From contig OZ076409.1 in the NCBI GenBank assembly GCA_964187785.1, forward strand, positions 63,118,001-63,182,000: a stretch of 64,000 nucleotides of DNA. The letters run 5' to 3'. A model generated the notes under the pieces. That model was not told the DNA's origin and made no database searches. It saw only the letters and a program-made list of their open reading frames with translations. Shown here piece after piece: positions 11,160-48,381 of the stretch (its first letter is position 1; every line of letters begins with the position of its first letter). The translations under genes were made by a program, and so were the position numbers. The stretch comes from Amphiscolops sp. MND2022. Its lineage: Eukaryota.

Positions 11160-11430
11160 ATTTCGGTCGACGCATTTTCCTCATGTAAAAAAACACGACT
11201 TTTACAAGGGCTAGTTTTTTTATTTTCGTCAGACCACAGAGCTCGCCCTGTGTATCACTTTTTAGTACAGAGAATAATCAGATCAGTGGGAAACCAGCGG
11301 GCACTGGTTCGAGTCCCCGCTTTAGCCTGAAACTTTTTCGTGCCTTTGCAAAATTGGACGAAACTAAAGGGTCCTCCATTTCGAGTTTTGTTGACACTGC
11401 CACACTTTTTATCAAAATTATTTTGTCTCA
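11160..11430 (-). repeat. HINE-like repeat, left part, split by the LTR element (continues at 29179-29660)
   Basis: GTCGACGC at 11166-11173 is the inverted complement of GCGTCGAC at 29632-29639. Joining the flanks restores the family motif tgtctca-aagggtcccc. Confidence 0.65.
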
Positions 11431-11831
11431 TGTGATGCCATGATGCATGTCCTCAAAGATTCTATAAATCTGAAATACTCTGAACTCTTAACCAAAGCAA
11501 TTAGTAAATATATTCTAATTTGGAAGCTAAGAAACTTCATTTAATATATCCTGTACCAAGCTTCCCCGATTCATCCTGTTGCTGTCACATTGTTAATTGA
11601 TGAAACCTACCCTAGTTAATAGAATATATCTACTCGGAGAAATTGAGAATTCTTCCTAACAATCGGTCTTCCTCCCGCAATTCGAGAACTGAGATCTCAA
11701 AAATAGATTGTACTCAGAACTAGCTAGCTACAAGATATAAGACAAGACGACTCCGCTGTTAAAATCTTAGACTTCTTATGTCAGTAATAAAACTTCTAAA
11801 AGAAACCACCACACAACTTTTTAACAGCTCA
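11431..11831 (+). repeat. 5' LTR of Gypsy element
   Basis: tgtgatgccatg...ttaacagctca; 3 substitutions versus the 3' LTR by eye; AATAAA near the end. Confidence 0.95.
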
Positions 11832-11833
11832 AT

Positions 11834-11846
11834 TGGTGCGACCAAG
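11834..11846 (+). promoter_or_regulatory. Putative primer-binding site
   Basis: TGGTGCGACC 2 nt after the 5' LTR (TGG pairs with tRNA CCA); the priming tRNA was not identified. Confidence 0.6.
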
Positions 11847-12902
11847 AAAATTCTTCTTTCTCTCCCATTCATTTCACACATTTACAATTGTTGTACACCT
11901 TTTCTCGACTTTCTCATTCGATATCTCTTTGTTCGACACACAGTTTTTCCACCTCTCAATATCGCATACCGTTACTAACTTCAACGTTGCAACCAATTTC
12001 TATTTGAAATTGATCCGTGTTGCTATGGTTCTGACTGCGTTTCTCAACGTAATTCCTGTCAGTCATATTTCTTGGTTCTGACTACGTGTCTTGACGTAAT
12101 TCCTGTCAGTAAATTTTTCGTTCCAACCACCTCCGAGTGAATTCGTGTTGGCTTTCTTTCTTCCGTTCCAACCGCAGACGTGCGATACGTGTTGGCCCTT
12201 CTACAGTGCTATCCAGCGATTCCTGCTAGTAGAAATCTCCTTGGTTCTAGCCGCTTGGATCAACTTTAAAGTTGGCACACCTATATAACACATATTTTCT
12301 ACATAACATAATTATAATACTTTTCTTGTTCTCTCTTCTATACTACACACAATATACAAAACTCTTTTAAAACTAGCTTACGGATCCAAATACATAACAA
12401 ATAAAATATATAACACATACATCACATATTTATTTATATAACTTTCATTTTTTCATACACCTATATAAAACAAATTCTAATACAACCTCTTGGACACATT
12501 CTTCATTGTTGATGCCGCCTTCAGTAGACACTGTAGTTAAACTCATTGTCTGCTTTTGGTTCTTTGTTGCTATCGTTGCCGGTCTTGCACTTTTTCTGGA
12601 CAAATTCTTAATTTCATTCATACCAAAATTTTGAAGTACAACCTTTTTCTTCTATGTTAACAAGCATAGTACTACCTCTTTTTGGACTACATAGTATTTA
12701 CCACACTTTCCATACACTTATCCAATATATACAAAACCCATTCCTTCTCTCTATAAGTATTGCACTTACTATTTTCTTACAAGTTGTTTTCATAGATCAA
12801 ATTTTACCATATAATTCACAATTCAATACAAAATATCTTCTTTTCCGATACATCTATCCTTTATGGCAATCTTATTGTACTAACCAAACTTAATATCATA
12901 TA

Positions 12903-15661
12903 ATGCTTCCCACTCCATTCACATTCACTACTGAAAAAAGACAAAATCGATCTCTTATACAAGATGTAACACCTTTTCTACATAACATTATCTTTCAGTA
13001 CACAAACCCACTTCCATTTGAAACAGAACCCCATATATTACATACTATTCCATTAGTACGAGAACATTGTGATTCTTATCTATATTATATCCACTATAAA
13101 ACACTTGACATTACACCATCACAAACCCCTTTTCAATTTCTTTTTAATCCTGTTAAAGGAATAAACCTTGGAACATTTTATAGAACTATACACCCAAAAT
13201 ATTACACTTTCTATACAAGATGTTTTTCATACATACATGCAAAAACTCATTGAATTCAATGAAAACCAAGACACACCACCTTATCGTCCTTCTCATTTAC
13301 AAGAACTAAAACACAGATCTGAATATTTCGAGGTCCCAGATCTTAACACGAAAGTCCAAAGACATGATAATCCTCATTATTGGTTACAACGAGATATTTT
13401 ACAAATAAAACATTTTCAGTACAGATTCTTTAACAACATTATCCTTACAGATGACACTATACCTCAAGTCAAAATTTTTACACAATTCTCATTAAAGTTT
13501 CTTAGATTTAACTATCAATTACTTTGGGAACAAAAGGACCAACAAGCTTATGTTAACTTCCCTCAAATATTAACACATATAGAACTCTTACCATACATCA
13601 TAAAAAATGAAAACAAACACTTACATTACAGAGATCTTACTTCAATAAATGTTACACATTTTGAACAAATAAACTTAGACCACAACTTTGTACTTGAACA
13701 CTCTGAAACATCAGATAACAGACCTTATATTACATCTGATACTTCTTATACAACAACTAGTGAAGAACAAACAACTAGTGTTGAACCTTCATATACAAGA
13801 CAACAATCAGAACAATCAGAACAATCAGAACAAGATTCCCCAATACAAGACGCACTTGTTAATCTTTTTCAAAATCCTGATCCCTCTCAAGAACAACCAC
13901 TATACCCACCACAATCACAAGTCTCTGATATACGACAACCGAATCCTTCTGAAACAAATACAATTCACAATACATCAGATTTTTCTGAAGAAACAGTACA
14001 AAATACACGAAGTTTTACAATAACCGATGATTCAAATCTTGTAATAATTCCTACCCATAATATCACACCAAACGAATTTACAAACCAAAACCAAGACAAC
14101 ACTTCAAATACAAACCCAGACAATACCTCTATTTTATCTACATCTAATACTAATATTACACAACCCTCTCAGACACAAATACTAAGTCCTCGAAATTATA
14201 ATCCACCTTCTGTTCCACCTCAATTCTCAACTCAGATAAACACTCATGACTCTCCTCACCAAAGCTCATCGAATACACCCTACACTGCACAGAACAATAT
14301 TACAGTACATTTTCAAACACCAACTCCACCATCATCTTCTGAAATACACACTTCGACTTATACTCCAGCTCAAACCAACTCAGTACAAACTACACAAACT
14401 TTAAACATTAACACCATCCATTCCAACCCATCTACAAATTATACCACTGCCAGACATCTTTCTCGACCTCCATTACAACCTATATTAACTAATCCATTAT
14501 CATACAGTCTCACCAGTACTAATCCAAGTCATACACAACAATCTCAGATAAATTACAACACACCCAACCCATTAAATACTCTTTTTTCTCAACATACATC
14601 CAATACAACCACTCCTACATTACAAACTTCTCAATTTCATATACCACACCCTCCTTCAACAACAATTAGAACTAACCCTCACTTTCATAGTACTTCAACT
14701 ACTTCTTTACCTAATATTTCAAATAATCCTACGTACAATACAACACCCCCATCTACTATATCTCAAAACACTATGTCACACCCAACATATATTAATTCTT
14801 CTACTTCTATATCAGAACCCATTAAACCTTTTGATGGACTCGATCACAACTATACACCTGAAGAATATTTACAACATATTGAGGCACGTGTTACATTTTC
14901 CTTAGGTTTACAACCTACATCGGAACATGAATATAAATTTTGGCACGCCCGTCGTATGGCTTTCATACAATGCTCTTTAACAGGTACAGCACTCAGCTGG
15001 TACATTCGTTTAAATGACACTTATAAACTTTATTGGCACGCTTTTGTACAAGCTTTCAAAAAACAATTTTCCTCACAAAAGAACGCTTACTATGCTCAAG
15101 TTGAAGTCCTTAATTTAACCAAAAAAGATAATGAAACAGTACGTCATTTTGCACTCAAAGTTCAACAGCTGGTTGAAAAAGGCTGGTGTAATGAGAATAT
15201 CCACTATAAACCTTAAATGTAATGAAATCTTCACAAAAGGACTTCCAAAAAATCTTAAAGACTTTGCAAATAAAAGGCAAGTAAAACACACCTCCACTGT
15301 TCTAGAACCTTCAATTCCTTTTCACACATTAGTAAAACTTGTTGACGCTGAAGATATAGCAAACGACAAAATCAGAACACATGATCTTGCACTTGAAATT
15401 AATAATATTACAAAACAATTGAACACTCAAACTCTTGATCACTCATCTCAAGAACAACTTATGTATACACAACCCAAAGACCCAAATAACAAAAATAAAC
15501 CTGCATATAAAAAATATTGCTCATACTGTCATAGAACAAATCACTCTATTTCTGCTTGTTTCAAAAAACAACGAGATGATGAAGATAAACGAGAAGCATA
15601 TGCTCGATCAAAATCGCCCACAAAAATCATTCGTTCAGTACTTTCGTTCTCCTTCCAATGA
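12903..15661 (+). pseudogene. gag: gag-like ORF (frameshifted): long N-terminal and S/T/P/N-rich extension, capsid domain, CCHC zinc knuckle
   Basis: PFDGLD...PEEYLQHIE...LTGTALSWY...WHAFVQAFKKQF capsid-like motif, and CSYCHRTNHSISAC knuckle in the next frame (15131-15661). Start position uncertain. Confidence 0.8.
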
Positions 15662-18600
15662 CAGAACAAAACACTATGATAATCGATACCGAAGTCGAAG
15701 TACCTCACAAGACAACTCTTACAATAAAAATTACTCACAAAACCGATACCGTTCTACATCTCGAGATAGAGACAGATTTCGTTATGACAAAAGTACTACT
15801 CCTCCACACTACTCTAGATCAAGATTTGATACATATAAACGTGATTCTCGGTCTTACCGTTCTCCTTATAGATCTTCTTATAGATCCCCATATCGACAAA
15901 ACTCTCGTCCTAGATACAGATCACGCTCCTATTCAAGAGATAACAAATTCACCAAGTACACAAATTCATATAGACCACCTTCAAGACCAAGAGATTCTAG
16001 ATTTTCTAGATCTCGCTCACACTCAAATTCCAGAAATAAAATCAATATGATACAACAACAAGACCAAACTGACCCTATCAAATTTGAAGTACACATGTAT
16101 CACCCAACAGCAATGGCAAATGCTGTCACACCTACAAGTTGGTTTTATACACTATATGTACATACCCCATCAAGTATCGTACAAAGAGACAACCCATCTA
16201 GATTAGAAATTGCATTCCTTCTAGATAGCGGTGCTTCCATTTCTGTACTCAATTACCCAACATACATAACTCTTACAAAACTTCTAGATATCAGATCAAA
16301 TCACACCTCTGATGTTGGACCAACTCGAAATTCCAAAACATTAACCGTTGCAAACCAAACTGAAGTTCCTATTTTACATTATACAAATATAATTTTGAAC
16401 ACCACTATTGATGAAAACTCTCGTTACTTTTCAGTACTTTTCGCAGTAGCTGATATCAAATACAATATCCTTGGCACACCATTCTTTGAAGACAATATAC
16501 AAAACATAAACATACAAGACTTTACACTCGAATTTAAATACCAATGAAAAACACACCCAAATTATGCAAAGTTCACAACACTCCTATCTAAAGATTATCC
16601 ATACTTCTCTTACATTTATAGAATTAACTCAAAAACTCAAATACGTCTAAAACCCAAGTCTTCAAAAATTGCACACTTTCCAATTAAAAATTATCATAAT
16701 CTTCATTTTACAACTACACCACAAAACCACTTCTTTCCTTCAGTACCTCATACCTATTTTGCTACCAAATTTCGTACAAATTTCAATTTCATTGAAGTAT
16801 TCACAGATGACAAGCCAGATATTTGTGCAACTTCCACAGACCAACTATATTGTACAATATGATGATCCTACAACCCCTCCTCCTCAATTCTCTCTACATC
16901 AAATATATATGACAAATAACGACATTCCAAATCAAACTTCTCCTATATATAACGTTCAGCCTACTTCTCATACTTCCGAAAAACGCATTTTCCCTTCTCT
17001 ACCATATACTTCTGAAAATTTGAAATTTATTAATAAATTTAACTTCCAGTTTTCTGACCTTACAGATTCAGAATACATTACTCTTTGCAATATGTTACTC
17101 AAGTATAAAACATGTTATGCAACTCATAAAAACGATGTTGGAAAAATTTCAACACCATTTCGTATACGACTTAAACCAAATGCTCAACTTATGACACAAC
17201 GTCCTTCCAAAGTCCCTACTCACTACCCAGACAAACTTAACGTACTTCTCAAAGAACTCGAAAAATATAACATTATCAAACAAATTGGTTCCTCTCCTCA
17301 AGACAAACCCGTTTATGGCACAACTTATTTAAACCCTCTTATTATAATCCCCAAGAGAGATACAATAAAATGTGTATTAGACGCTCGACACCTTAACTCC
17401 AATACAGAACAATCTGATGAATCTTGGCCTATTGAACTTCTTGCTCCACAACTAGCACGCGCAACTAAAAAGTACAAATTTGCTATTGACCTTATGTATG
17501 CCTATGCACATAGACCTCTTGACGAAGATAATATAAAATTTTCTAGTTTCTCTTCCGGAGATAAACTTTTTGCTTTTATCCGAGGCTTTTATGGTCTCAA
17601 AGGACTACCAAACTTCTTTACAAAACAAATGTCTACTTTCTTTAAAACTCTTATAGAACAAGGTTTCGCTCCTGTCTACATTGACGATATATTACTTTTA
17701 TCTGATTCCAAAGAACACATGTTCCAACTCGTAGAACCATTACACATTATTAGTACAAAAAACAATCTTAAAATAGCCCCTGAAAAATCCTTTTTCATGC
17801 TTCTTAAGGTCAAGTTCCTTGGACATGAAATTGGTTACAATACAATTAAACCAATCCATTCAAAAATTACAGCTATTCATAAGATCCCTTCTCCAACTGG
17901 CAAAGTTGCCCTAATGAGTTTCATTGGCGCACTCAACTTTTACACCAAATTTATTGAAAAACTACATATTAACCTCAAACCATTTTACGATCTTTTACAT
18001 GAGAACACTCCTTGGAAATGGACAGATGAACACGAAAGTCTATTCCAAAAACTTAAAATGTCTCTCACTTCTGAAACAGAATTAACAATACCAAATACAA
18101 AACATCCATTTTTCATTACAGTTGACGCTTCCTTTATTGGATTAGGCGCTGTCTTATTCCAGTTAAATGAACAGAACAAAATGAAAGTCATATCGTACAA
18201 CTCTCGTATACTTAATCCACAAGAACAAAAACTCTCCACACTCGATAGAGAACTTCTTGGTATAGTACACGCACTTCAAATCAATGAATTTCTCATCACA
18301 GGTTCTCCCCATCCAATACACATTTTTACTGATCACAAACCTTTATTACATTGTTTTACAAAGAAAGGTAACCTCAGTCCTCGTTTCTACAGAGCTCAAA
18401 TGCAATTGACAAAATGTTCAAAACTCAAAATAATTCACACTCCTGGAAAAAATCTCTCTGTTGCCGATATGTTGAGTCGCTCCTTTACAAAAGCTGAATT
18501 ACAACTAAACCAGTTAAAACATAAACACCTCCCACCACAAATCGATTTTGCACTTTTACAAGATAACACTCTTAAACCTGTACATTACTTAATAAAACAT

Positions 18601-20933
18601 GAAGAAATTTTACCTCATCAAAAACATGACTCTCATCCAATTCTCGCTGATTATGGCACAGATCAATTCTCTATTCGTATCAATGATAAAGGAAATGACA
18701 TTGTTGTCAAACCGTTACAATCCTTCTCATTCATATCCATAACTCCTTTTCAAACTAAGTTCAAGACACCTATAAAAAAGAACAATAAAACCCTCCATCA
18801 ACAATCTTTCTTACTTAATGATACTGACGTTACAAGTGATGACGAAGATCATATATACACCAGAATTCCAAAATCTGACTCTTCCTTCTTTCAAGACACA
18901 ACATTACAAACAGAAAATTATTCTACTTTTAACCAATCAACTCACACTACCTCACAAAAATCAGTTTCTGCAATAAATGTACAACCAAATTTACCATCTC
19001 TCACACACTGTCAACAAATCATACCTTTCTATGATACATCATTTTTTAAGTACAAAAACTATTTTCAAGGTTTCTTCCTTCCAGATGATTACTCATTAGA
19101 CATAAACACTCTTCAACAACAACAATCCCAAGATCCGGTTCTTAGAACTGTTTATTCTTGGTTATTAATCAATGAAAAACCCGAATTTATAACACCTCTT
19201 ATCACTGGTACTCCATTTCTACATGTATATTACAAAAGATTTTCACAACTTTTCATTGACGAATCTACAAACCTTATTAGTCTATATATTACCAACCCTA
19301 CTGTTATAAACCAACCCTCTACTCCAAATTTTATACAAGACACTATTCGTATATGTCTTCCTTTTCGACTGTTCAAAACTGTCTTTAACAAACTCCATGA
19401 ACACTCTCACACTGGTATGAAAATTACCTACAAAACATTCAAACAATATTACTACATTCCATTCCTTGAAAAATGGCTTTCCTTTTTCATACATGATTGT
19501 ATTGAATGCCAACGTAACAAACATTTCAAAATGAAAATTCAAACTGCTTCTACACAATCATTTTCAGAACATGCTCCATCCTTCAACTATCGAATTTCAA
19601 TGGACACTAAAGGACCTATTAATCCTCATTCTCACAACAAATCCTATATACACGTGATAATTGACGCTTTTAGTCACTTTGTTGTTACAGTACCCATCAA
19701 ATCAAACAACGCAAAGACTGCTATCAAAACTCTTCTACACCATTGGATTATTAAATTTGGACCACCCATATATCTTGTCACTGATCGTGGATCAGAATAT
19801 GTTAATAAAGAAATGGCACACCTTTGCACACTTATGGGAATTCGTCATTCTCCTCGAACAGCTTATTCTCCTTGGACAAACGGCCTTGTTGTAGTACAAA
19901 ATAGAAATCTTGGTACCCATCTACGAATGTTCTTACATGACACACCTAAAGATTGGGCATTCCAAGTCCATATGTGCTTATGCATATAATTCACAACCAC
20001 TTTCAGAACTCAACATTTCACCTCACGAAATTGTTTTCCACACCCGACTCAGAATACCTCTTACATTTGATTTGAACCTTAACCGAGACACCTCTAAAAC
20101 ATGTATTTCACGATATTGCTCTCAACTTCCAACACACTCCCATTATGATAAATCAGATTTAAACCCATTTTTCTATAAAACCCTTTCAAAACCCATTCCC
20201 CATTGGTTTCTCGCTGTAGAAACTGCTGTTACAAATTTATTCTACAGTATACGAAAACACTCTAAGAAAAGTCAATTCACACGCATACATTACAAAAAAG
20301 TACCATGAAGGTAAACCCCTTCCTATTGGTACCTTTGTTTTAAAACGCAATTTTACACACGTTCATTTTTCTGACAAACTAAAACCCCTTCGGATTGGAC
20401 CATACAAAATACTTGATAGATTATCAGATGTTACATATGAACTACTTGCACAAGATGGCTCTATAGTACACGTTCATAGAAATCATTTAATTCCATATTA
20501 TCCAAAAGAACCACTCTTATATCCACAATTGCGTAATTTTATGCGCTTTTCAGACACAACTCAATTCCAAATTCCACAACCTACCAAATATGCAAACTGT
20601 GATTCTTCTCCTTTTAACTCAGACGAATCGTTGTCAGAAGAAGATTCTCCAACATTTGTAACTCCATCATCATTTAGTACATCCAATCAGAATACACCAT
20701 CTATAACATCCAATGACAAGTCTTTGACTCCCTCAACCAATGACAACTCCTTATATAGACATATAATTAATACCCCTCACACTAATGTCTCTAGTGACAG
20801 ATCAAGACACTCATCTAATAACCAAACAACTTCACTTCCTCCTCTAATTGACAGAACCACAAAAACTACTTATAAACTACGACAACAACCCAAATTAGAT
20901 TATAGACTTTTTATTACACCCTCAAAACTGTAA
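15620..20933 (+). pseudogene. pol: pol: RS-rich linker, aspartic protease, reverse transcriptase, RNase H, integrase (several frameshifts/stops)
   Basis: LLDSGASIS (~16224); VYIDDILL (~17677); TVDASFIGLGAVL and FTDHKPL (RNase H); HEHSHTG...CIECQ, MDTKGP, TDRGSEY, and NGLVV where NGLVE is expected; GPY motif RIGPYKILDRLSDVTYEL at ~20391. Confidence 0.95.
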
Positions 20934-21019
20934 TCCTATCATTCTATCCGCTGGCTCACTCAAAACTAGTCACTCCATTTGAATGAAATATAACCCATAA
21001 CAAGTTATCTCAAAGATAA

Positions 21020-22258
21020 CCTTTTGAAAACACTTCAACAATCCTGGATCCTCCCTCTGATATATCTCTATCAGCTCCAAGTATCCCTTCCACACCTGAA
21101 TCTTCAGTATCTAGCACTACAAACTCTAGTAATGTAACTCCTACTACTCCTTCTAAAAGACCAAGATCATACATCTCTGAAACCACCTCTTCATCATTTC
21201 TTCACAGACCACCTATAACTGAAATCCCTATAAACCCTCGTCCTCAACAAACCCCTATTAACACTCCTATTATACACATACCAAACCCTGAAAGTGTTGA
21301 ACAATACGTAACATACAAACATCCTACAGCTATCAAAACTGTTAGACTACAACCTCAACTTAATCTTGTACAAATCCCTGATACTGAATATACAAAGCTA
21401 CCTTCACTGAAATTACCATCAGAACTTAGCACTACTTCTTCAAAACTTTATCCACCATTAAAACCTCTTAGAAAACTTTCTACATCACTCTCAAATCTCT
21501 TAGACAATACTTCAGACTACGCTCCATCACAAGACACAAGCTCACTTTTTGTACCTAAACATCGATATAATCTTCGTGACTTCCACTCACGTAGACTTAG
21601 TACAGACACTTCAACACTCAATTTTTCCACTCTTTCTAGCAATTCTGCACTACGACTTGTACGACAACACGCTCAACCATTGTCCTCTGACACACCATCT
21701 TCAGAACTCTTCCAATCTCCTTATTTTACTTCTGGTTTTGAAACCGCTTCATTACTCTCATCTAACCCTCAGACTGCATTTTTATCAGGAGACCTTTTTT
21801 CACAAGTAGTAATCCCTACTCCTGTTCCTGCACATCTTCGACAACCCGAATACTATACTGCAGAACACTCTAGACCCCCAACTCCAAATTTTGCTGACTA
21901 TCCACTTAGAGTCGATGGTATAACCATCTACGACCCACAAAACGATCCCCGATTTCCAATTCTTGCAGAACGTTTCATTAATAACAACGACCTTTTATCT
22001 CACAAACGCAAAGAAACAGAACTAAAACGCCTTCAGACATCAAACCTAGAAGTTAATTTTGAAGTCAAAGTCAAATTTCAAGGATTATATCCACACCCAA
22101 TATTTCACGTTTCTAAAATAGAACATAAAACCTCTCCTGCTCCTTTTGAAGTAGTACATATTGAATTTGAACGCGATCTTAATATACCCACTATCACATA
22201 TGGCAAAATTGTCTTCTGCAACCCATATTCCGGTCTTAAATATAAAACATCTTTTTAA
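21020..22258 (+). CDS. Unknown S/T/P-rich reading frame between pol and env (no ATG)
   Basis: Stop-free frame from after TAA at 21017-21019 to 22258 (~412 codons); the ORF track reports only its last 192 aa. Confidence 0.55.
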   Translation, partial: PFENTSTILDPPSDISLSAPSIPSTPESSVSSTTNSSNVTPTTPSKRPRSYISETTSSSFLHRPPITEIPINPRPQQTPINTPIIHIPNPESVEQYVTYKHPTAIKTVRLQPQLNLVQIPDTEYTKLPSLKLPSELSTTSSKLYPPLKPLRKLSTSLSNLLDNTSDYAPSQDTSSLFVPKHRYNLRDFHSRRLSTDTSTLNFSTLSSNSALRLVRQHAQPLSSDTPSSELFQSPYFTSGFETASLLSSNPQTAFLSGDLFSQVVIPTPVPAHLRQPEYYTAEHSRPPTPNFADYPLRVDGITIYDPQNDPRFPILAERFINNNDLLSHKRKETELKRLQTSNLEVNFEVKVKFQGLYPHPIFHVSKIEHKTSPAPFEVVHIEFERDLNIPTITYGKIVFCNPYSGLKYKTSF

Positions 22259-24912
22259 GCCCTACACAACCTTTTACATAACAAATCTAATACTTTATTT
22301 ACATTTCTTCAACTCTACCTTTTCTATACCCATAACACCCTCTGACACAGAAAACTATCTTCCATCGGATGACCCAAATATTACAAATCTCATGGTTTCT
22401 CATTATGACTGTGCAAAACAACACAATCTGAGACAATTTAATCTACTCAATGTAAAACAATGCACTGAAGCTCCTTCCGACATTAAGCATGCAAGTGTTA
22501 AAGCCCGTGTATATGTTCGAGCAAAAGCTAAACGCATCAAAGCTTTCAAATGTGTTGCTTATGCAAAGAAAGAAAGGAAAATATGCTTTCAAGGTTCCGT
22601 AAAATACCGTCGTGTTGATAGAACCGTATGGAATCATAATACATTACCGCTCCCTGTTACTCTTGATCCAGTAGAATGTAAAAACATTATAAGACATTTA
22701 AATGGTACAAATGATAAAATACTGAATAACCTTCAATACAACAAAACCTTTACACTCTTAGAAGATCATTATTTTCAAAAACGTTTAGAACAATATCAAA
22801 CTCCTTTCACTGTATATCAATTGAACAAGATGTATACAGGTACATTTACATTTATGCCTGCTGACAAAAACTGGATATATGATCCTACTCAAAACCCTTT
22901 TCATAACTGTCCCGCTCATCACCAATTTGAAGTCAACTTAGTTAGTTGGCGACTAGAAATTTCTGAAGTAGAACTTACATATGATGATACATCTAATGAC
23001 ATGATAATCGATGGACATACATTACCCTGCTACTTTGCAGATGGTTTCTGTAAACCAACTACAAAAACTCCTTTTACTCTTGTTTGGTTCAATGAAGATT
23101 TTCGTCTAATTTTTACCTTACAAGTCTTTATTGGACGTATGACTAACATTGAAGATAGATATTGGATTGAAACAGACTCTTTTGTACATTCTCCACATCC
23201 AATAAAATCTAAAACAGCTTCTGGTATCAAAGGCACAGAATATTCCTATGTTTATGCTCCTCATACACAACATCCAAATAATCCAAGTCTTTCAAGATTT
23301 GAAGTTTTTCCTACAGCACAAACCTTTTGTGGTAAACCAGACCCTCTCTATTCTACACAATATTCAGACCTTTTTGTTACATACACTGATGGTTTCAATA
23401 TGCATACAGGACAACCCAATTCTCATTCCATGATTGATGAATATATTTCTGGTAAAATAGTATTGGACACTTCAAATAACAAGTTTGTATTCCCTGCATT
23501 AAATGTATCAAACAATTTTGCTACCATTGATTATGATGTACATATAAACACCAAAATCGATTATACTATTAATCATGTTTTCCGATCAATGACAGTACAA
23601 GAACTAAATACTCTTCATACAATATGTGAACTAGAACGAAACCAACTTCTTACAATACTCGCAATGTCAGTACAAAACCCTCAACTTGCTGGTTTCCTTT
23701 TAACCGGTAATAGAAGTAACTTCTTATACGTTGAAGGCTCAACCGCCTGGCTTTACGACTGTCCTCATTTTTTATCTCCTTTATACAAAGCAGATAGATG
23801 CTTTGACCGTATACCCATACATTTAATTTAAAGATACTTTAATGTACGTTGATCCTATTACAAGACAAACTTATGATTATGCTACACCAATTACATGTGA
23901 TAATAATCCACGTAACATTATTGAACTAGATCCTGATTCAGACGACCAAGACTTTTACATTCTTGGACCTGAAACTATTAAACGCAAACCTCCACTAATG
24001 TTTACACCTTCACAAATCAAAACTACAATACGTCCTAATACTTTTACAGCCCTAGATGCTGGTATATATTCAAATGCAGAACTTGATCAACTTTGGAACC
24101 GTATTTTATTTTCCAAACATTCTGACTCTACACTCCAATTACTAGGCAAAGCTCTTAGTTATTCCTTCATTTCATCTAATACTCCAAATTACGATGCAGA
24201 TTCCCCTCAAGATTCTGGTAATCCTTACAATACATTACGTATAGGACTCCATGATAAACTCTTGAATTTAACTCCTTTTTTTACACCTACATGGTTTTCA
24301 GATGCTTTTATTGCACTTTTTGGATACCCTTGTTACATTCTCACACAATGTGGTATATACTTTTCTACATTTCTTTTCGTACAAGCTACCCTTACACTCA
24401 TTGTCAAACTTTACAAAACAATATCCATTAAATATAATCTCAAAAATAATATTACCTTATTTAGTTCTATAGCACATGGTTTTTTTAATGTTCTTACAGC
24501 ACGAATGGTCAGTGACTTCCATGAGACTCAAAACAAAAAACCCAAAAGTACACTTTTAAAATCCAAATCTATAGATAATTTTATTGACACTTCTCCAAAT
24601 CTAATTAATCATTCTACAGATGTTACTTCCCCTCCACCTTTCTATACTGAACGTCCTAACAAAATTCAATTTCCTAAATTCAACTTGTTTCCGAAACGAC
24701 ACCACAATTCTCACCATAAAACAGCTCCACTTCCTTTCTCTCCTGTTCAACATCCTCCACTTCCTAATTATACTCATGAAAACTTTCACTCGAATGACAA
24801 TCTAACTACTCAACATGACATTTTAATTAACAATCCTGCCACTTCTACTACGGATACACCAATTAAAATCTATTCACGGATAAACTATCCTTTTCCTCCT
24901 CCATCTTCTTGA
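22200..24912 (+). pseudogene. env: env-like membrane glycoprotein (resembles chuvirus G / herpes gB-type class III fusogens), split by a 4-bp insertion
   Basis: Signal-like FYITNLILYLHFFNSTFS; Cys-rich ectodomain (YDCAKQ...KQC; ICELERNQLLTILAMSVQNPQLAGFLLTG...VEGSTAWLYDC...CFDRIPI...VDPITRQ...PITC); N-glycosylation sequons; C-terminal hydrophobic FIALFGYPCYILTQCGIYFSTFLFVQATLTLIV. Removing TTAA at ~23823 fuses the two ORFs (IPIHFKDTLMYVDP). Confidence 0.78.
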
Positions 24913-25151
24913 ACACTCTCTCAGTTTTTCTGTAACTCTCTTTCAGCACACTTGCCTACTATCTCTTCACAATTGCTACTCCCCCACCGCTCGAAACTCT
25001 TGCAGAAGTTCATCTTTCTCAGCCCAATAATACTTCTCTAATATTAACAGTCTTCAAAAACTCTTCAACTAAAGTTGATAAATCCACTCGTTAGTGTAAT
25101 TTATAGTACTTTCACTTTAAAGGGCTAAGGCCTCCTGGAATAGATAACACT

Positions 25152-26519
25152 GTGACTGTTGATGTTTTTAAAACAATGACACAAGCACAAATTGATCTAC
25201 AAACACAGCTTGAACAAGCAACCCCAACAGATCTTATAACTAGACCTCTTTCAAATGATTCTCCTGTTCTCTATATTGAGACCCTAGAACAAACACCTCC
25301 AACTTTTCTTGAACCAATGGAACACACAAAAGTTGAAAACGAAAATTCAAAACCTACTCCTTCACAAGATGATACTGATCATACACAATCGACACCACCT
25401 CCTCCAAAAAAACGATATGAAATTATGAAAGATCCAATCTTTCTTTCATCACCAATATATCCTCCTTCAATACCTTCAAAAATCTCACTTTGTACGAATC
25501 GCGATGATCATTTGATCCCATTTCTTTCTACAGACGATTTCGTCTTCAAAGCACAACTAACTTCTCTATATATGCATCCTACTGACTATTCATTTCGCTT
25601 ATATGACAAAATTCAAGACTTCTTCACATCCATTGCTTCCAAAATAATGGGTCCATACCAATATTGGCTCGATAATGGAGTTAAAATTTTCTCTCTCCAA
25701 TTCAATTTTCTTCGACCATCTATCTACGATCTCAAAACAGATGAATCTGATCCATCTTTTCTCTCTATAGCACAAAAAGCTACTCATCATCAAACATACA
25801 CTAAATTTCTGCAATACACGAAACCACAAAATCACATTTTTGTCATTTACAAATATACATCACCGTTCACAATGACGAATATGTACACTCTGGACCACTC
25901 CTGTATAACAGGCTACCTTCGAAACTATGACCCTATAAAACAATACTTCTGTTTGCTTCCATACAATAATACTTCACGCCCACTTATTGTACCTCAAGAA
26001 TATCTCATACATTACGATGATTTTTTGTTGCCTTGCAACATTCCTACACAAATTGCCAAACCTCTTACTGTTATTAAACACCTAGTATCTTCTCCACTTG
26101 ACGATAAAGATAGAACGTACTATACAGCACTCTACAAACAAACGTATTCCTACAACGAACTTCTCTTTGTATCTGCCAAAACTATCTCTTTCATGGTACA
26201 AGATGAACAAAAAACTGAACATAAATCACACGTTTCACCTATAAAAAACGCTCCTGATAAACTTTCCTCAGTATTAAACAACCGAACACTTCGCGACATA
26301 ACAAATTTACTTGAACCCTATAAACGAAACTCCTCTGAAACACCTATCACAACACTCACACATATACTACACTGCTATGACAGAACACACAAACTCCTTC
26401 AAACACTCGACTTAGACTCTCAACGCATCACTCAATCATCCCAAGCAATTCAATCTGCTTTGGAAACTATAACTACTCTTTTAACTCAACTAATCTTCAA
26501 TAAACTCTTATACAGGTAA
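25152..26519 (+). CDS. Unknown accessory ORF (~450 aa) inside the LTR element
   Basis: Uninterrupted long ORF on the element's sense strand; basic PPPKKR motif; helical C-terminus; no recognised family. Confidence 0.7.
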   Translation: MTVDVFKTMTQAQIDLQTQLEQATPTDLITRPLSNDSPVLYIETLEQTPPTFLEPMEHTKVENENSKPTPSQDDTDHTQSTPPPPKKRYEIMKDPIFLSSPIYPPSIPSKISLCTNRDDHLIPFLSTDDFVFKAQLTSLYMHPTDYSFRLYDKIQDFFTSIASKIMGPYQYWLDNGVKIFSLQFNFLRPSIYDLKTDESDPSFLSIAQKATHHQTYTKFLQYTKPQNHIFVIYKYTSPFTMTNMYTLDHSCITGYLRNYDPIKQYFCLLPYNNTSRPLIVPQEYLIHYDDFLLPCNIPTQIAKPLTVIKHLVSSPLDDKDRTYYTALYKQTYSYNELLFVSAKTISFMVQDEQKTEHKSHVSPIKNAPDKLSSVLNNRTLRDITNLLEPYKRNSSETPITTLTHILHCYDRTHKLLQTLDLDSQRITQSSQAIQSALETITTLLTQLIFNKLLYR

Positions 26520-26922
26520 TATAAAGTTTTTAATTTTTCTTCTCTGGTACATTCTTTGATACATCTTTGGCACAATATCAAAGGTATTTTTACTTTTGCT
26601 TACTTTTTAAACTAAAATCTTCCTTCTGAATGAAATCTCAGGACTATCTTTCACGTCTAATATTCTTTCCTACAGTACATGTAAAACAGATAACTCCTTC
26701 TATCAAAAAACAAATACAATACAAGACATACAAAACAATATAGCACAACACCAAATATGATACATTCCAGCTCCAAATTTTGTTGTACATCTTTGACTTG
26801 ATATTGACATTTTTCTTACACTTCCTCTGTTTTAGAAACATCTATTCTTCTTCCTCCTCCATCCAAATTCTTTCAGAACATCCCAACTTCTCTTTCTTCG
26901 CATTCTTCCAACCCTCGTCATC

Positions 26923-27375
26923 ATGGCTCCAAATGCTGGAACAAACGATATTCTCACAATGACTTCAGAGTTTTCGAAAGGGCATAGTCTCAAAGCCGCC
27001 ATATTTCACACAATGGCATTCAAACTCTCGCTTGAAATTCACAAAAACAAAATTACGCCAAACTGTCTCATCGCTTTCTTAAAAGTACTCTACAATGTCA
27101 GGCTAATAAAGAAGAAAAAAATCACTTTTGAGCAATACTCGCGGATCCATCTTCAAGGACCTAAAATTGCCATTTGCGAAACGGCATCTAATGTTGTTTT
27201 CGTCCTAAATTCTTCCTTCACTTCAAGGGATCAGTACTTTCGTACTGCTCTCCAAGAAGCCACAGACGCTTTTAATAATATGCTGAAAGATTTCGGGTAT
27301 ACGCAAAAATTAGAACTCTATGACCCGATCCAACACCAAACTCATCCTCCATCACAAAATCCTCTCTTTCAATAA
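26923..27375 (+). CDS. Unknown accessory ORF (150 aa) inside the LTR element
   Basis: ATG-initiated ORF with a plausible globular composition; no recognised family. Confidence 0.5.
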   Translation: MAPNAGTNDILTMTSEFSKGHSLKAAIFHTMAFKLSLEIHKNKITPNCLIAFLKVLYNVRLIKKKKITFEQYSRIHLQGPKIAICETASNVVFVLNSSFTSRDQYFRTALQEATDAFNNMLKDFGYTQKLELYDPIQHQTHPPSQNPLFQ

Positions 27376-28777
27376 TCTCTATAACAAAAACTTCTACTTA
27401 CTTCTATTTCACTCTTCAACTGCATTTCGTCTCCAAATCCTTCATCTTCTTTCGATGATGCATTGAAATGTGGTTGCTGATCACTCCTCCAAAGAACTCC
27501 TACACATGCTGACACTCTTCACTCCACCCACACACGATGGTCAACAACATCCATCTACACTTTGGGTTCATCGACGTTGCCAAACTTTGTCCTCGTCACT
27601 GGTCTTCACACTCCACGATGACTTCTTGACTGGTCTTCACACCTCAAATGCTGACTTCTTGACTGGTCTTCATACTCCAATGGACTATACTCCAAATTTC
27701 AAACATTATAATCAAAACTTGAGTCAGTTTTCAAACTGAACTGTATAATCAATTTTAACCAATATAACTTGTAACTTATTTTAATCAAACTATAACTTTA
27801 ATATAGTATAGTGCTATATACCCTTATCTAATCTTTAGTGCTATATACTCTTATCTAATCTTAATCTTCTGTAATCGCATTATAATGACCCCTATATTGC
27901 AAAATCCCTTCAAAATTCTACCGATAATTATCTTGTAACCACAATATTAACTGATCCTATTGTCTTGAGTATAGTACATTGACGTAATCTTATCTAATTA
28001 TGTTGTTACATCTATAATACACTTCAAAAATATTTCTCCAATACCCATCTTTTACAGAACACAAGTCCTACCTACAGCACAAGAAATTTTCTAAGATTTT
28101 TGGACAAAAAGTTTTCTTTTACAAAATATCTTCTACACCTTTGTTTTAATCCCCAAAAGCATTCCCAAAAGTTTTCCAAATTTTTCTGTACAACTCCTAA
28201 AAAATGTCACTTCTCGTTTTCTAATGTTTGAAACTTGAAATTGCCAAAGTTTTTTTTTTCAACTTTTGCCTCTGCTCTACTCTTCACTTTCGTTGAAAAC
28301 TCTCACTCGAACCTTGACTTTTCGAAACTTCTTCACTTTTGGTTCACATACCCGCCAATGTTGGTTCACAAATCATTGACAACTTCACGCTTTAATTCTT
28401 CAACTTGAAAAGTTTTCAATGCTGACTAACTCATGTTGATGAAAGAATTTTTTCCAACAAGCCGATGGCTGATACGAAAAAGAAACATGAAATGATAAAT
28501 AGTTGTGAACAATAACTTCATAAGAACTTGTCAGTCAAAGAAACTGAAAGAACTTGAACCTTGCTTGAACCTTTTTGCACCAATTGAATCTTCTATGACG
28601 TAAGAAGTCAAATCGTCTTAGGTTGTTCTCACTCCTTAAGTATGGTACTCTACAAAACGAAACTCATGCAACCCTAGTACAACACATATGAAACAAATCC
28701 ATGCATATAACAAACTTCTAGAACTCCTCAAACCCAAAGTGCATATATGTAATTTTTATTTTAAATTCCCGGTTGAT

Positions 28778-29178
28778 TGTAATGCCATGATGCATGTCCT
28801 CAAAGATTCTATAAATCTGAAATACTCTGAACTCTTAACCAAAGCAATTAGTAAATATATTCTAATTTGGAAGCTAAGAAACTTCATTTAATATATCCTG
28901 TACCAAGCTTCCCCGATTCATCCTGTTGCTGTCACATTGTTAATTGATGAAACCTACCCTAGTTAATAGAATATATCTACTCGGAGAAATTGAGAATTCT
29001 TCCTAACAATCGGTCTTCCTCCCGCACTTCGAGAACTGAGATCTCAGAAATAGATTGTACTCAGAACTAGCTAGCTACAAGATATAAGACAAGACGACTC
29101 CGCTGTTAAAATCTTAGACTTCTTATGTCAGTAATAAAACTTCTAAAAGAAACCACCACACAACTTTTTAACAGCTCA
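28778..29178 (+). repeat. 3' LTR of Gypsy element
   Basis: tgtaatgccatg...ttaacagctca followed by the CTCA target duplication. Confidence 0.95.
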
Positions 29179-29660
29179 CTCAAAGGGTCCCCTTCTAGTT
29201 TTTCATATTTTGCAACAAATTAGATTTCAAAAACCCGAACGGTTCCCCTTTTACCTTTTTGGCACAATGAGACTGTTTCAAAATTCTTAAACGTTGTCTT
29301 AAATTAGTTTTTTTTCAATTTATACCCACAAATACTTTTTTTGAAACTATCCAAAATTTTGACGTAATATCCGGAGTAAAGCGCTATATTCGAACATTTG
29401 ACATTACATCCGAAGTATTTTGCGTTTTACTGAGGAGGAAGAGGGGTAGGATCCAAAAATAGCTCGCATTTGTCACGGTATATCCGAATTTCTGTTTTCC
29501 GAGCACGAAGGGACGGAGTGTTCAATTTTTTTCCGAGTTTTTCATGAAAACGTCCAGGGCATATTTGAAAAACTGCGCGTTTTGAAGAAGAAAGCAGAAA
29601 AACGTTTCTTCATTTTTAAGCCTTAGATATAGCGTCGACTTTAGACGTTCCCGTCTTGTT
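29179..29660 (-). repeat. HINE-like repeat, right part
   Basis: aagggtcccc motifs; family terminus gccttagatatagcgtcgactttagacgttcccgtcttgtt. Confidence 0.65.
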
Positions 29661-30991: not shown

Positions 30992-31764
30992 TGTAACGGC
31001 AAGCAGTTATCGGTCGCTTAACGCGTTAACAGAGGTGGAGGAACCTGCAGGAATGGGTGAATCGCTCGGAACAGGCGCCCATCGCCACAGATCCATTTTG
31101 CCTCCAGGGGTGAAATACGTCCCGGGGCCGCGGGTGCTTCGACGAATACTGTCCAACCGGTCCTAGTCTTTGATTGCTAATAGTAACGGGCATCTTTCTG
31201 ACTCTCTAAAGACCACCGCTTAACTAGCATATAAAAACAATGCCAAGAATAAGGTAAATTTCCAGTTCCAGGGTGACATGTGAATAAGATCTAAAATTGG
31301 GGAATAAGATCTAAACTAGCGCTAGCGCTACTGAATACAGCCAAAATCACTGAAAATACATGAAAACAGGCACGAATATGGCAAACCACACAGCTAAAAA
31401 GCTGGGGCGCAGGGGCTCCAAGCACCAAACAAGGATCTTTAGGCGAAAAGACTCATTTTTACGGTTTCCGCTACATAGGGTAGGATAATGCTGAAAATCG
31501 ATAAAACCGGTGTTAGCACCTCAAAAAGAGTCTATTTTTGGATGTTCTTGCCGTCTCTGGCTTCTGTCATGGCGGCGCGCCCGTGTTTTTGCTCGTTCTT
31601 GCTCTTTGTTGTCGAAGTACCTGCCAATTTCGTGGAAACAGCGAAAAGAGCAATCACATGCTCAGTGCCACGTCACACATCGAATTAGAATTTTTGACAA
31701 AATTTCTGAACATGTCAAAGTTGCAAAATCGGTTGATATTGCTGTACCAGAGCTTGCCGTTACA
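30992..31764 (-). repeat. 3' LTR of non-autonomous element
   Basis: 4 substitutions versus 37599-38371 by eye; preceded on the minus strand by purine-rich GGGGAGTGA (31765-31773). Confidence 0.92.
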
Positions 31765-32765
31765 TCACTCCCCGGGCTTTATGCATGACGTCCCTGTCAT
31801 GCGGAGAGGCTGGCATTGAATACATCGCCACATCATGAGTGCAATCCACGGGGGTCTCAAACTGGTGATGTTGCAACGGTCCAGTGACACTGTCATCTTT
31901 TGCTGATTGGGCAACCATGAGGTCTTGCTTCTTGCCATCCAGAGAACCTGCATCGTCCAGAAACTGTTGAAAAGAGCTAGCTCGAGAGCTAGAAAACCAG
32001 TACTCAAAATGCACCTTGAAATTGATCAAATCCAAGATTCCATACATCAATCAAAAAAGCACCACTTTTTTAGCACGAGTTTTCTGCAAAAGTCTGAATG
32101 GGATCCTGCTAGCACTTTGGTTTTTGGACGTCTAAAATTTCTTTTACGGAGCGCTCACGCTCCAAAGCGCACGTGGTTTTCAGGAAAAACATCTTTTCCA
32201 CGGCAATAAAACTTCAGTTTGCAGCACAGTTAAAAGTTCTTTTCGCTAAAACTTCTTTTCAGTGGAAAACCACTGTTTAAAAGGAAAACAAGCTGTTTCT
32301 TCGATACTTTTTTTACAGTTCGGCTTGGTTTGGGCAACACGCACTGATGTGCAGCTCCATACCTGTGTAGAGTTCAGTAGCATCTGTCAAGGAGCGCATC
32401 AGAAGCAAACTACGAACTGCTCATAAGCATAAGCGCTGGAGTAAAGCAGACAAAGGTAGATCAAATCTTGCCATTTGCAGATCAGGAGCGCGCGCGCTCC
32501 TTATTTTTCCGGATATCACGTTGGAATCTGGAGGAAACTTCTGGAAATCTTGGAAAAGAAAAACAAAAATAGCACCTTTCGGGCGCAGCAATACATGTAG
32601 AGTTTTTGGGTTATTTATTGAATTAACAGAAGTATTTGAATTCAAACATCTCAAATAAAACTAAAACAAAAATGTCGCGACGTACGTTTACATGACTACT
32701 AAAATTACGAAACAAAGTTGCAGAAAAAACTGCTCCAACAAAAACATCACGCTGCAAGGTATCCA

Positions 32766-33740
32766 TTACCAAACGTAGTGATATCCTCCGGGCGTTATCC
32801 AATTGAGTTGATGAGTGTAGGGGTGTTTGTCTTCAAATGGGGCTCCCGGGGCCTTAGTTGACTCCCCGGGCCTTAGTCGTTGAGCACCCTCTTTCACATG
32901 AGGACAAAATTGAATGCCTGACATAAAAATGCAGCAGGAAAGATTAAGCGTTGACGACACCTCCTCCCCCTTTGAAAAGAAGTGGAGTGTGGTTTGGACT
33001 GGATAGACATCACCATCCAATAGCAGCAGGACATGCAACAAGCATGAAGCATCAGGAAATCCGATAAAGAAAATCTTGGAGACTGGGTCTGTCCCAAGAC
33101 TGGAATAGTTGTTCGGAGGACGGCCACGCCTATGTCCCTTCGGTCGAAGCGACCATGGTAGAACTTGGCGTGGTGGACGGCCACGGCGACGTCCATCGTA
33201 AAGGGACAAGAGAACTTTTTTCCATGAGTGCTCACAGTCTGTGCGGGGTGGTCGACCACGTCTATGACCAGTTGGTCGAGTTTTAGCTGAACCACCAGGC
33301 AACCAATTGATGAAGACTGGCGGGTCCACCTGAATAAAATCCTGTAGCACACGTTTAGCAGAATGTGGCTCAAAGGAGTCTTTCCGCAAATTCGGCAGCA
33401 ACTTCGTAGTTGATGTTAGGGACTTTGTTCCAGGGAAGTGAGAGTTGCTTACAGAATCTTGCGATAAGGAAGTGGAGGGTGAGATTGATATTCGTTCATT
33501 CTTCGTATCACTTGAGTGGAGGTTGCGCTCGCGCAACCCATTATCACCGGCGTGATATTCAGCCAAAGTCTCAGCAATACACAAAGCAATACATATGGTT
33601 GTGGTGTCCAAAGATATTGGGTCCACCCCCATGTCTTTTGTTGGCGGTGTCAATGGTTCTGATTCGACAGCGTCTGAAATATTGATCTGCATTTGTGCTA
33701 GCGCTCGCGCTATCGCTCGCGTAGCAGTTTCTCCTGGCAA
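32766..33740 (-). CDS. Hypothetical protein with three AT-hook-like (RRGRPP) motifs
   Basis: 324-codon frame on the element's sense strand containing GHRRGRPPR, GRRRGRPPR and GHRRGRPPN; start codon is non-ATG and uncertain. Confidence 0.5.
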   Translation of the reverse strand: MPGETATRAIARALAQMQINISDAVESEPLTPPTKDMGVDPISLDTTTICIALCIAETLAEYHAGDNGLRERNLHSSDTKNERISISPSTSLSQDSVSNSHFPGTKSLTSTTKLLPNLRKDSFEPHSAKRVLQDFIQVDPPVFINWLPGGSAKTRPTGHRRGRPPRTDCEHSWKKVLLSLYDGRRRGRPPRQVLPWSLRPKGHRRGRPPNNYSSLGTDPVSKIFFIGFPDASCLLHVLLLLDGDVYPVQTTLHFFSKGEEVSSTLNLSCCIFMSGIQFCPHVKEGAQRLRPGESTKAPGAPFEDKHPYTHQLNWITPGGYHYVW

Positions 33741-36700: not shown

Positions 36701-37564
36701 TCTCAAAAAGGACTCCAACGGCCTTTCTGGTTGTCGTTACATTATGTAGCATAACCCTCGAGGTTTTGGGCTGCTTTCTATTCATTTTTGCAACTGCTGT
36801 GGCTAATACTTCGAGCGCTCGCGCTCGTACCAAGAAAAGTACTCAAAAATGCCAAAAATCACGTTTTTGCGACTTTTGCACTAAAAATCGCACTTTTTTC
36901 ACTGAAAACGGGTGCAAAAGCAACACTTAGTTGCAACAGGGTAAAACTACAATACACAATCTAAAAATTTTTTCATACCATACTCCGAAAAACTGATACT
37001 TCTGAAATGAGGGGTGGTACTTTCGTCGTCTTTTTTCTCAACACCCAGACCAGCTAGAGAGAAACAGTTTGGACCGTCGGCAACGTCAGCACTTGTTCTA
37101 CCTTTCCACCAAAAACCATCCCTCTAGCACGTCTCCACGAGAAATGGGAAAGGAGAGTCGGGAACACTCGTTTCAGCTCATCTATCAGTCGGATGGAATA
37201 TGGTTCAACCATCAACTTCACCTCTCGTACATAGCCAAAAACGCTGAAATGAGCTGTAAAACACCTGTTATAACATGCGTAACGGCTTTCTAGCGGTTCG
37301 CTAAGCCATTACAAAGGTACCCGCTGATGGGAACGTGCAATTTTAGACGATACCTGTCAACAAATACCTGTTATCAAAACATACCATAGGTATTCGGAAA
37401 ATCCCCCGAACTACAGGAAAAATACCAAAATATAATGTCATATCATCTAAAAAATTTGGAAAAACTCTGGGTAAACGTCTCCTTCCAGAGTCCAATCGCT
37501 CTTGGCGTCCAATACCAGGGGGTCGGAAATTTCAAAACCATATAATAGGGCAGTAATCGGAAGC

Positions 37565-37583
37565 GATCCCTCTGTGGTCGCCA
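37565..37583 (-). promoter_or_regulatory. Primer-binding site, tRNA-Arg-like
   Basis: Minus strand TGGCGACCACAGAGGGATC resembles the complement of the eukaryotic tRNA-Arg 3' end (...GTGGTCGCCA); lies 15 nt inside the LTR boundary. Confidence 0.7.
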
Positions 37584-37598
37584 AAAAATGAGGTCTCA

Positions 37599-38371
37599 TG
37601 TAACGGCAAGCAGTTATCGGTCGCTTAACGCGTTAACAGAGGTGGAGGAACCTGCAGGAATGGGTGAATCGCTCGGGACAGGCGCCCATCGCCTCAGATC
37701 CTTTTTGCCTCCAGGGGTGAAATACGTCCCGGGGCCGCGGGTGCTTCGACGAATACTGTCCAACCGGTCCTAGTCTTTGATTGCTAATAGTAACGGGCAT
37801 CTTTCTGACTCTCTAAAGACCACCGCTTAACTAGCATATAAAAACAATGCCAAGAATAAGGTAAATTTCCAGTTCCAGGGTGACATGTGAATAAGATCTA
37901 AAATTGGGGAATAAGATCTAAACTAGCGCTAGCGCTACTGAATACAGCCAAAATCACTGAAAATACATGAAAACAGGCACGAATATGGCAAACCACACAG
38001 CTAAAAAGCTGGGGCGCAGGGGCTCCAAGCACCAAACAAGGATCTTTAGGCGAAAAGACTCATTTTTACGGTTTCCGCTACATAGGGTAGGATAATGCTG
38101 AAAATCGATAAAACCGGTGTTAGCACCTCAAAAAGAGTCTATTTTCGGATGTTCTTGCCGTCTCTGGCTTCTGTCATGGCGGCGCGCCCGTGTTTTTGCT
38201 CGTTCTTGCTCTTTGTTGTCGAAGTACCTGCCAATTTCGTGGAAACAGCGAAAAGAGCAATCACATGCTCAGTGCCACGTCACACATCGAATTAGAATTT
38301 TTGACAAAATTTCTGAACATGTCAAAGTTGCAAAATCGGTTGATATTGCTGTACCAGAGCTTGCCGTTACA
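37599..38371 (-). repeat. 5' LTR of non-autonomous element
   Basis: Direct repeat of 30992-31764. Confidence 0.92.
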
Positions 38372-48199: not shown

Positions 48200-48381
48200 T
48201 ATTATGTGGAAACAATACAGTTCTTAGGTTTTTCTTTTTGATGGGAATTCCGAACAGAAATTGACGTTGTTTGAATGGAGGTATTATTCGGATATATCCG
48301 AATGGTACCGAAGAGTATCCGAATGTCAAATTTTAGTTTCTTGCTTTTCTGGTATTGTTTATGAAGACAATTTTTGCTACG

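Follow-up and report, generated by a model that had tools for sequence, protein, structure and literature searches.

An 18-kb Ty3/gypsy-type element of Amphiscolops sp. MND2022 with a class III envelope gene, conserved additional genes and a probable CUG-started protein

We analysed a 64,000-nucleotide stretch of the genome of Amphiscolops sp. MND2022 (contig OZ076409.1, positions 63,118,001 to 63,182,000 of the forward strand; hereafter the window), which holds at 11431..29178, on the plus strand, an element of 17,748 bp bounded by long terminal repeats (LTRs). From our point of view, and with a probability of roughly 0.58, it represents, in broken form, a Ty3/gypsy-type element of 18 kb that carries a gene for a class III fusion glycoprotein (env) and accessory genes under selection, of which one, open reading frame (ORF) X, would be started at a CUG codon, and the element likely spreads in enveloped form. 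At least four families in the genome (A, which includes the window copy, B, D and E) share a common layout, namely small membrane-peptide upstream ORFs (uORFs), gag-pol, X, class III env, Y and the position of Z. They measure 17.7-18.8 kb, copies with insertions or deletions aside, and their reverse transcriptase (RT) sequences are 72-90% identical.

Copies for comparison were gathered from the genome of 1.07 Gb, in which the LTR and ORF Y gave about 2,900 first-look candidates each, figures that are not copy numbers; the Y proteins form a cluster of 1,036 members with a sister cluster of 502. Our family-A sample comprised 18 copies, eight chosen by LTR and ten by Y, and divergent relatives used as queries retrieved families B, D and E as well as a further family, C. 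All eight copies chosen by LTR alone are colinear with the window element, two carrying internal deletions and two internal duplications. X was found in 17, Y in 18, Z in 17 and both uORFs in 16 of the 18 family-A copies, while X, Y and Z are retained in 10/10 copies of family B. Counting frames of 2,600 codons or more, gag-pol is uninterrupted in 0/18 A, 5/10 B, 5/5 D and 5/5 E copies, shares that are biased upward for B, D and E, where copies were selected as best protein matches. In these three families, which yielded intact frames, the LTR pairs are 98.4-100% identical; the LTRs of family D end TG...TA.

The ratio of nonsynonymous to synonymous changes (dN/dS), taken from families A and B with synonymous sites near saturation, was 0.04 for RT-RNase H, 0.08 for env, 0.13 for Y, 0.15 for X and below 0.11 for Z. 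Independently of protein guidance, codon-position counts in a DNA-only alignment of A and B gave an excess of third-position changes in X (P 6e-8 and 3e-10), Y (1e-17) and Z (1e-7), with no such excess in the LTR, leader or spacers. As judged from this comparison, X, Y, Z and env are shown to be under purifying selection and the extra ORFs are shown not to be nested insertions.

This bears on a rather improbable alternative, namely that the element is an ordinary, catalogued Gypsy family enlarged by nested insertions or passenger DNA. LTR elements with additional ORFs 3' of pol or env are indeed known (PMC6431247; PMC5408684; these and the other publications cited below were available in part). 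However, selection acts on X, Y and Z, their order is common to four families whose RT identity is given above, the element has no inner terminal repeats, and among the matches listed the RT clade described below holds no named protein; the passenger part of the proposal is refuted. An earlier reading of the letters alone (hereafter the sequence-only reading) had described at least three frames besides gag, pol and env, and X, Y and Z are indeed present, neither absent from other copies nor nested.

The same reading had proposed a giant Gypsy-type element with exact LTR, primer-binding-site and target-site-duplication (TSD) boundaries, which self-comparison of the window bore out: a direct repeat of 401 bp with TG...CA ends and three mismatches lies at 11431-11831 and 28778-29178 and is flanked by CTCA on both sides. 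The primer-binding site TGGTGCGACCA starts two bases past the 5' LTR and pairs with the 3' end, CCA included, of a tRNA-Met(CAT) gene in this genome (locus L112), which terminates in CTCACTGGTCGCA. In family C the corresponding site matches tRNA-Met over 16 nt; tRNA-Arg(TCG) had been considered as primer and was replaced by tRNA-Met. At L110:1480-1560 the 3' half of tRNA-Met is fused to a family-A-like LTR end, which looks like an accident of reverse transcription in which the primer was recorded. An exact 4-bp TSD was present in 28 of the 40 copies tested (families A, B, C and E plus the window copy). Together with the order gag-protease-RT-RNase H-integrase, these are features of Ty3/gypsy elements; the sequence just 5' of the 3' LTR is no classical polypurine tract. 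Every long frame in the open-frame list sits on the plus strand, as had been noticed, and the sense strand of 11431-29178 is strongly biased in composition (A 34.5%, C 24.2%, G 10.2%, T 31.0%). Between Z and the 3' LTR no conserved ORF was found.

The window element itself is a dead, frameshifted copy, with gag-pol in seven pieces, env in two and about 165 bp deleted near 16.8 kb. In B, D and E gag-pol is a single frame of 2,640-2,695 codons that encodes a 285-residue N-terminal domain, a T/S/P-rich linker, capsid, one CCHC knuckle and an RS-rich tract, followed by protease, RT, RNase H, integrase and a tail with Y-x-L/F-R. Pfam recognised Retrotrans_gag, RT, RNase H, integrase and the class III fusion protein family PF24664 in the window frames; the protease match lay below the cut-off (E 0.06), and its LDSGAS motif was read directly. 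The N-terminal domain of Gag is conserved (39-63% identity among families) and had no match in Pfam or PHROGs. A 200-codon +1 frame within gag, open in A, B and E, was rejected as a gene: its dN/dS is 1.03 and its divergence tracks the gag frame.

The RT-RNase H region matched 177 long polyproteins; among the 120 matches listed, unnamed ENA proteins form a block with identities of 99% down to 42%, and the other matches of broad cover are at most 35% identical. In a quick RT tree, which took 58 of 119 eligible rows and no GyDB or Repbase reference elements, families A-E and the ENA proteins form one clade (Shimodaira-Hasegawa-like approximate likelihood ratio test 100, stem 1.22), in which the listed matches from the protein collections searched include no named protein. 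Two clade members match this genome at only 67% and 35%, and the clade is therefore likely present in other genomes. Two of the ENA proteins, P0526 and P0529, are Gag-Pol proteins of this RT clade that are encoded in a single frame; they are 2,575 residues long, have another N-terminal extension and apparently come from another genome (the best match of P0257 here is 35%).

As for the envelope, PF24664 matched both pieces of env in the window (E 5.5e-11 and 3.1e-7) and the gene of family B (8.8e-23), and it lies above the cut-off in families A, B, C, D and E. Env of family B has an N-terminal hydrophobic segment and 16 Cys, and PPxY-like motifs occur in the env tails of A, B, D and E. The env profile found no match among PDB sequences. 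A point against enveloped spread is that family-B env is without an R-x-K/R-R site. From the stop of pol at 20933 to the ATG of env at 22200 there are 1.27 kb, with X in between.

ORF X is without ATG in any family. Instead, the motif A-N-N-CTG-G opens the conserved frame in all 37 copies examined (17/17 aligned of the 18 family-A copies, 10/10 B, 5/5 D and 5/5 E), CTG otherwise making up 0-1.5% of the Leu codons in long frames, and protein conservation begins exactly at this codon. Homologues of X lie at the same place in D and E, at 38-46% identity. ATGs are scarce in the 1.2-1.4 kb from the CTG to the env ATG, with 2, 3, 0 and 1 in A, B, D and E, where the other ORFs would predict about 20 and shuffled codons 5-8 (fractions of shuffles 0.07, 0.03, 0 and 0.003, respectively). 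Under the established rules of translation, the simplest and well-supported reading would be that X is started at CUG and that env is reached by leaky scanning.

Some observations weigh against this. In family A alone the depletion of ATG is not significant against the codon shuffle (0.07), an S/T/P-rich control, the gag linker of family D, is also ATG-poor (3.3 per kb), and the use of the CUG, the subgenomic RNA and the release of particles are predictions from sequence. In addition, X could be the 3' exon of a spliced or recoded product without any CUG start, in which case the conserved CTGGAT would be an RNA or DNA signal. The missing ATG would fit this proposal, as would a family-C ORF that likewise is without ATG and opens directly after a pyrimidine-rich, splice-acceptor-like TTTAG. 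However, in A, B and D the stretch from the upstream in-frame stop to the CTG is free of AG, the first internal AG of family-B X falls 3' of its PSAP motif, and both the distance and the frame between pol and X vary among families. The AG-free stretch and the variable spacing speak against exon fusion or readthrough, as does the onset of conservation at the CTG itself, and we regard this alternative as improbable, if slightly less so than that of a catalogued Gypsy family.

Assuming the CUG start, X would consist of a disordered, S/P/T-rich N-terminal part with linear motifs and a folded domain of about 130 residues. Late domains fall into three classes, which include PT/SAP and YPXnL (PMC8402826), and YNLR is the core of the chromatin-binding peptide that prototype foamy virus (PFV) carries in its Gag and whose Tyr and Arg contact the acidic patch of H2A-H2B (PMC12125541). 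LYPxL is present in X of all four families, compared with a single match in the gag-pol frames of three families, each about 2,650 residues long, and it occurs somewhere in the translation of 19/19 family-A copies, the window copy included; PSAP is found in X of B, of E and of 14 of the 19 family-A copies. When residues 168-203 of family-B X were modelled with H2A and H2B of the same genome, the complex scored 0.80 and the best of three controls 0.01, the runs sharing at least 78% of contacts at a partner predicted local distance difference test (pLDDT) value of at least 51. The model places YNLR on H2A E60/E65/E68/D94/E96; in calibration, 51 of 78 solved pairs came up to this score mark, compared with 2 of 108 mismatched ones. 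It shows a likeness to the foamy anchor, not binding. Based on these motifs, X is predicted to recruit the budding machinery and to tether the genome to nucleosomes.

Against such a dual role it has to be considered that PSAP is missing from family D and from the window copy, that short motifs occur by chance in disordered regions and that Y-x-L/F-R also stands at the end of Pol in all four families, so that the copy in X may be redundant. The calibration of the model covers neither peptides nor host-element pairs, the controls were not basic peptides, and the model may presumably echo the solved foamy Gag-nucleosome complex. It is also conceivable, though unlikely, that X is CUG-started and acts in the nucleus only, as a tether or regulator, its late-domain-like motifs being incidental and budding being driven by Gag or the Env tail. 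Such a role would agree with the invariant YNLR and its placement on the acidic patch, with the PPxY-like motifs of the env tails and with the loss of PSAP in family D. On the other hand, LYPxL is kept in four families within a region of about 40% identity, and Gag itself carries neither PSAP nor LYPxL. The folded C-terminal domain of X (model pLDDT 73.8) gave a best Z score of 3.1 and no Foldseek hit at E<=0.001 in PDB or BFVD; it may have a matrix-protein fold, which the model neither shows nor excludes.

ORFs Y and Z are both without a membrane segment. Homologues of Y lie at the same place in D and E, and identity among A, B, D and E is 38-73%. Y had no match in Pfam, PHROGs, PDB sequences or Atlas; its AlphaFold model is of low confidence (pLDDT 52.5), with only generic coiled coils in the fold search (best Z score 6.6), and all 149 newly listed matches of its profile (150 listed of 674, E<=0.001) align to Y proteins of its own family. 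A Tudor-like look of the core is an unsupported assumption of ours. Z is 61% identical between A and B (E 1.7e-60), with no match to D and a marginal one to E, and it had no notable match in Atlas, Pfam or PHROGs. It is thus confined to A and B, whereas D and E carry different ORFs at this position. Among the collections searched, X, Y and Z match no known family or fold.

The gene order gag-pol-X-env-Y-Z of the sequence-only reading can be seen in the window, although it passed over two membrane uORFs before gag and the lack of an ATG in X. uORF1 has a homologue in family D and a similar peptide in E; between A and B both uORFs are gap-free, with a weak trend for uORF1 (dN/dS 0.43, second-position deficit P=0.08) and a clearer signal for uORF2 (dN/dS below 0.18, P=0.009). 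In each of the four families the gag ATG lies no more than 12 nt from the end of the last uORF. A readthrough of uORF2 into gag is unsupported, the two being in frame in A and B but not in D, where they overlap as TAATG. The MDG1 group carries two small ORFs (sORF1 and sORF2, fusion-associated small transmembrane (FAST)-like) at the same position 5' of gag, one of them with a membrane segment, but these elements lack the env that is present here (bioRxiv 10.1101/2025.03.14.642691). A reading of the uORFs as sORF2/FAST-like peptides was rejected: the myristoylation motif MGxxxS/T occurs in 0/8 uORF peptides, and the polybasic tract is absent, with fewer than three K/R after the membrane segment (families A and B, read by eye).

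Taken as a whole, the element would work as follows. A full-length RNA, primed by tRNA-Met, would yield a single Gag-Pol polyprotein, with ribosomes probably reinitiating at gag once they have passed the last uORF. X and Env would come from a subgenomic RNA, made by splicing or from an internal promoter, on which X would be started at the weak CUG and Env reached by leaky scanning. As a free-standing protein, X would unite the late domains and the chromatin anchor that p12 of murine leukaemia virus (MLV) or foamy Gag hold inside Gag, and Y and Z would serve as accessory factors outside the membrane that act on the host, with Y likely oligomerising through its C-terminal helices.

Table 1. Features of the element in the window
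Feature	Position	Strand	Remarks
5' target-site duplication CTCA	11427..11430	n/a	same 4 bp flank the 3' side
5' LTR	11431..11831	+	401 bp, TG...CA; self-comparison
Primer-binding site TGGTGCGACCA	11834..11844	+	11-nt match to tRNA-Met(CAT) 3' end with CCA
uORF1	12512..12634	+	40-aa single-pass membrane peptide; open in 15/18 A and 10/10 B copies
uORF2	12654..12893	+	79-aa hydrophobic peptide, ends 9 nt 5' of gag ATG; open in 12/18 A and 10/10 B copies
gag-pol	12903..20933	+	7 pieces in window copy; Pfam, sister families
ORF X	21044..22258	+	404 codons from conserved CTG; strong Kozak context
LYPPL in X	21446..21460	+	YPXnL-type late-domain motif; LYPxL in X of all four families
YNLR in X	21566..21577	+	core of foamy-virus Gag chromatin-binding sequence; in X of all four families
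env	22200..24912	+	class III fusion glycoprotein; 59-nt overlap with end of X; frame break near 23.8 kb
ORF Y	25176..26519	+	447 aa, soluble; ~250-aa conserved core, C-terminal long helices
ORF Z	26923..27375	+	150 aa, soluble; families A and B only
3' LTR	28778..29178	+	self-comparison
3' target-site duplication CTCA	29179..29182	n/a	4 bp

Family C (L058-L075; e.g. L062:9474-10000 plus L063:1-457) belongs to the same RT clade at about 45% identity and measures 17.8-18.2 kb, with LTRs of 1.4-1.6 kb and with gag and pol in separate frames. Its env is of the same type, but its accessory ORFs differ and lie on both strands; one of them, 3' of env, is a gene with a coiled coil and MATH/TRAF (PF21355, E 2.8e-11). 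Profiles of the Gag N-terminal domain, X and Y found no match in it.

Elsewhere in the window, a second LTR element at 30992-38372 has 774-bp LTRs (99.5% identical, TG...CA) and a minus-strand site TGGCGACCACAG that matches tRNA-Arg(TCG); it is likely non-autonomous, with no RT by tblastn and no frame above 334 codons. About four tandem units of 1.7 kb, 98-99% identical and with inverted-repeat arms, lie at 48322-56011, and 46983-48087 on the minus strand is what we take to be a Tc1/mariner-like transposase remnant. A GC-richer block at 57390-63409 is probably part of a DNA transposon; its 682-codon frame has a C2H2-like zinc finger (CHICKK...H...H) and no Pfam match.

Among described systems, Ty3/gypsy elements that carry an env of F or gB type occur widely across animals, and the 'ancient errantiviruses' whose env is of HSV/gB type (HSV, herpes simplex virus; Chary and Hayashi, eLife 2026, PMC13524379) share with the present element the Ty3/gypsy pol followed by a class III gene related to chuvirus and herpes gB, the multicopy state, LTRs and a tRNA primer. 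They have three ORFs, in contrast to at least six here, and the 1.27 kb between pol and env with X inside departs from their description, which allows a gap of up to 1 kb. Since that screen took POL-ENV gaps of at most 1,000 nt and regions of up to 10 kb, it would likely miss this layout. LTR-to-LTR spans among 30 of the 221 ENV_HSV rows in its supplement reach about 12.9 kb (PMC13524379). The word 'accessory' has no occurrence in the available main text, nor Xenacoelomorpha or Acoela in the available supplements (PMC13524379). The lineage that the sequence-only reading held to be possibly undescribed has no named relative above 35% RT identity in the literature and protein collections searched, but its env type alone was already known; for the layout with X, Y and Z the literature searched appears to hold no description.

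The planarian Burro/GYPSM1 (PMC6431247) is likewise giant, gypsy-like and present in thousands of copies, with env homology and a MATH/TRAF domain as in family C. However, Burro exceeds 30 kb and carries env in frame inside a polyprotein of about 4,900 residues, between gag and pol, whereas env is a separate ORF here and the elements measure 17.7-18.8 kb. Foamy viruses and foamy-like endogenous retroviruses of fish reach 17 kb and have accessory ORFs (PMC6431247, PMC12125541, PMC8402826, PMC6042332), and PFV Gag holds both PSAP and the YNLR nucleosome anchor, motifs that are also in X (PMC12125541). They are Retroviridae with the motifs inside Gag, in contrast to the Ty3-type profiles, the class III env and the presumably CUG-started ORF found here. 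BEL/Pao elements with a chuvirus glycoprotein (PMC7642597, PMC10084718) share the broad env type but belong to another superfamily, and Troyka was rejected for its 3-bp TSD and CG...CG ends (PMC12440569), against 4 bp and TG...CA in the window. Overall, the element behaves like an env-carrying Ty3/gypsy element and is not a plain three-ORF member of that group.

One could speculate further, albeit tentatively, that these elements are complex invertebrate retrovirus-like viruses independent of Retroviridae, with a packaging limit of about 18 kb, an env of herpes/chuvirus type, swappable accessory genes that include a captured TRAF-domain gene, and a CUG-started protein that converged on the budding and nucleosome motifs of MLV p12 and foamy Gag. 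In this context, five families with different gene sets all measure 17.7-18.8 kb.

Env-carrying Ty3/gypsy elements have been described as simple gag-pol-env units, whereas the present clade keeps four to five more genes that appear to be under selection and places retrovirus-type host-binding motifs in a separate protein, with apparent non-AUG initiation and leaky scanning. This would also explain why screens limited by size and gap pass over such elements. If true, a complex-virus organisation arose again outside Retroviridae, and three protein families without known fold, the N-terminal domain of Gag, the X domain and Y, would be added to those described. As the families are young, with near-identical LTRs, both their expression and the function of the motifs should be testable in the host.

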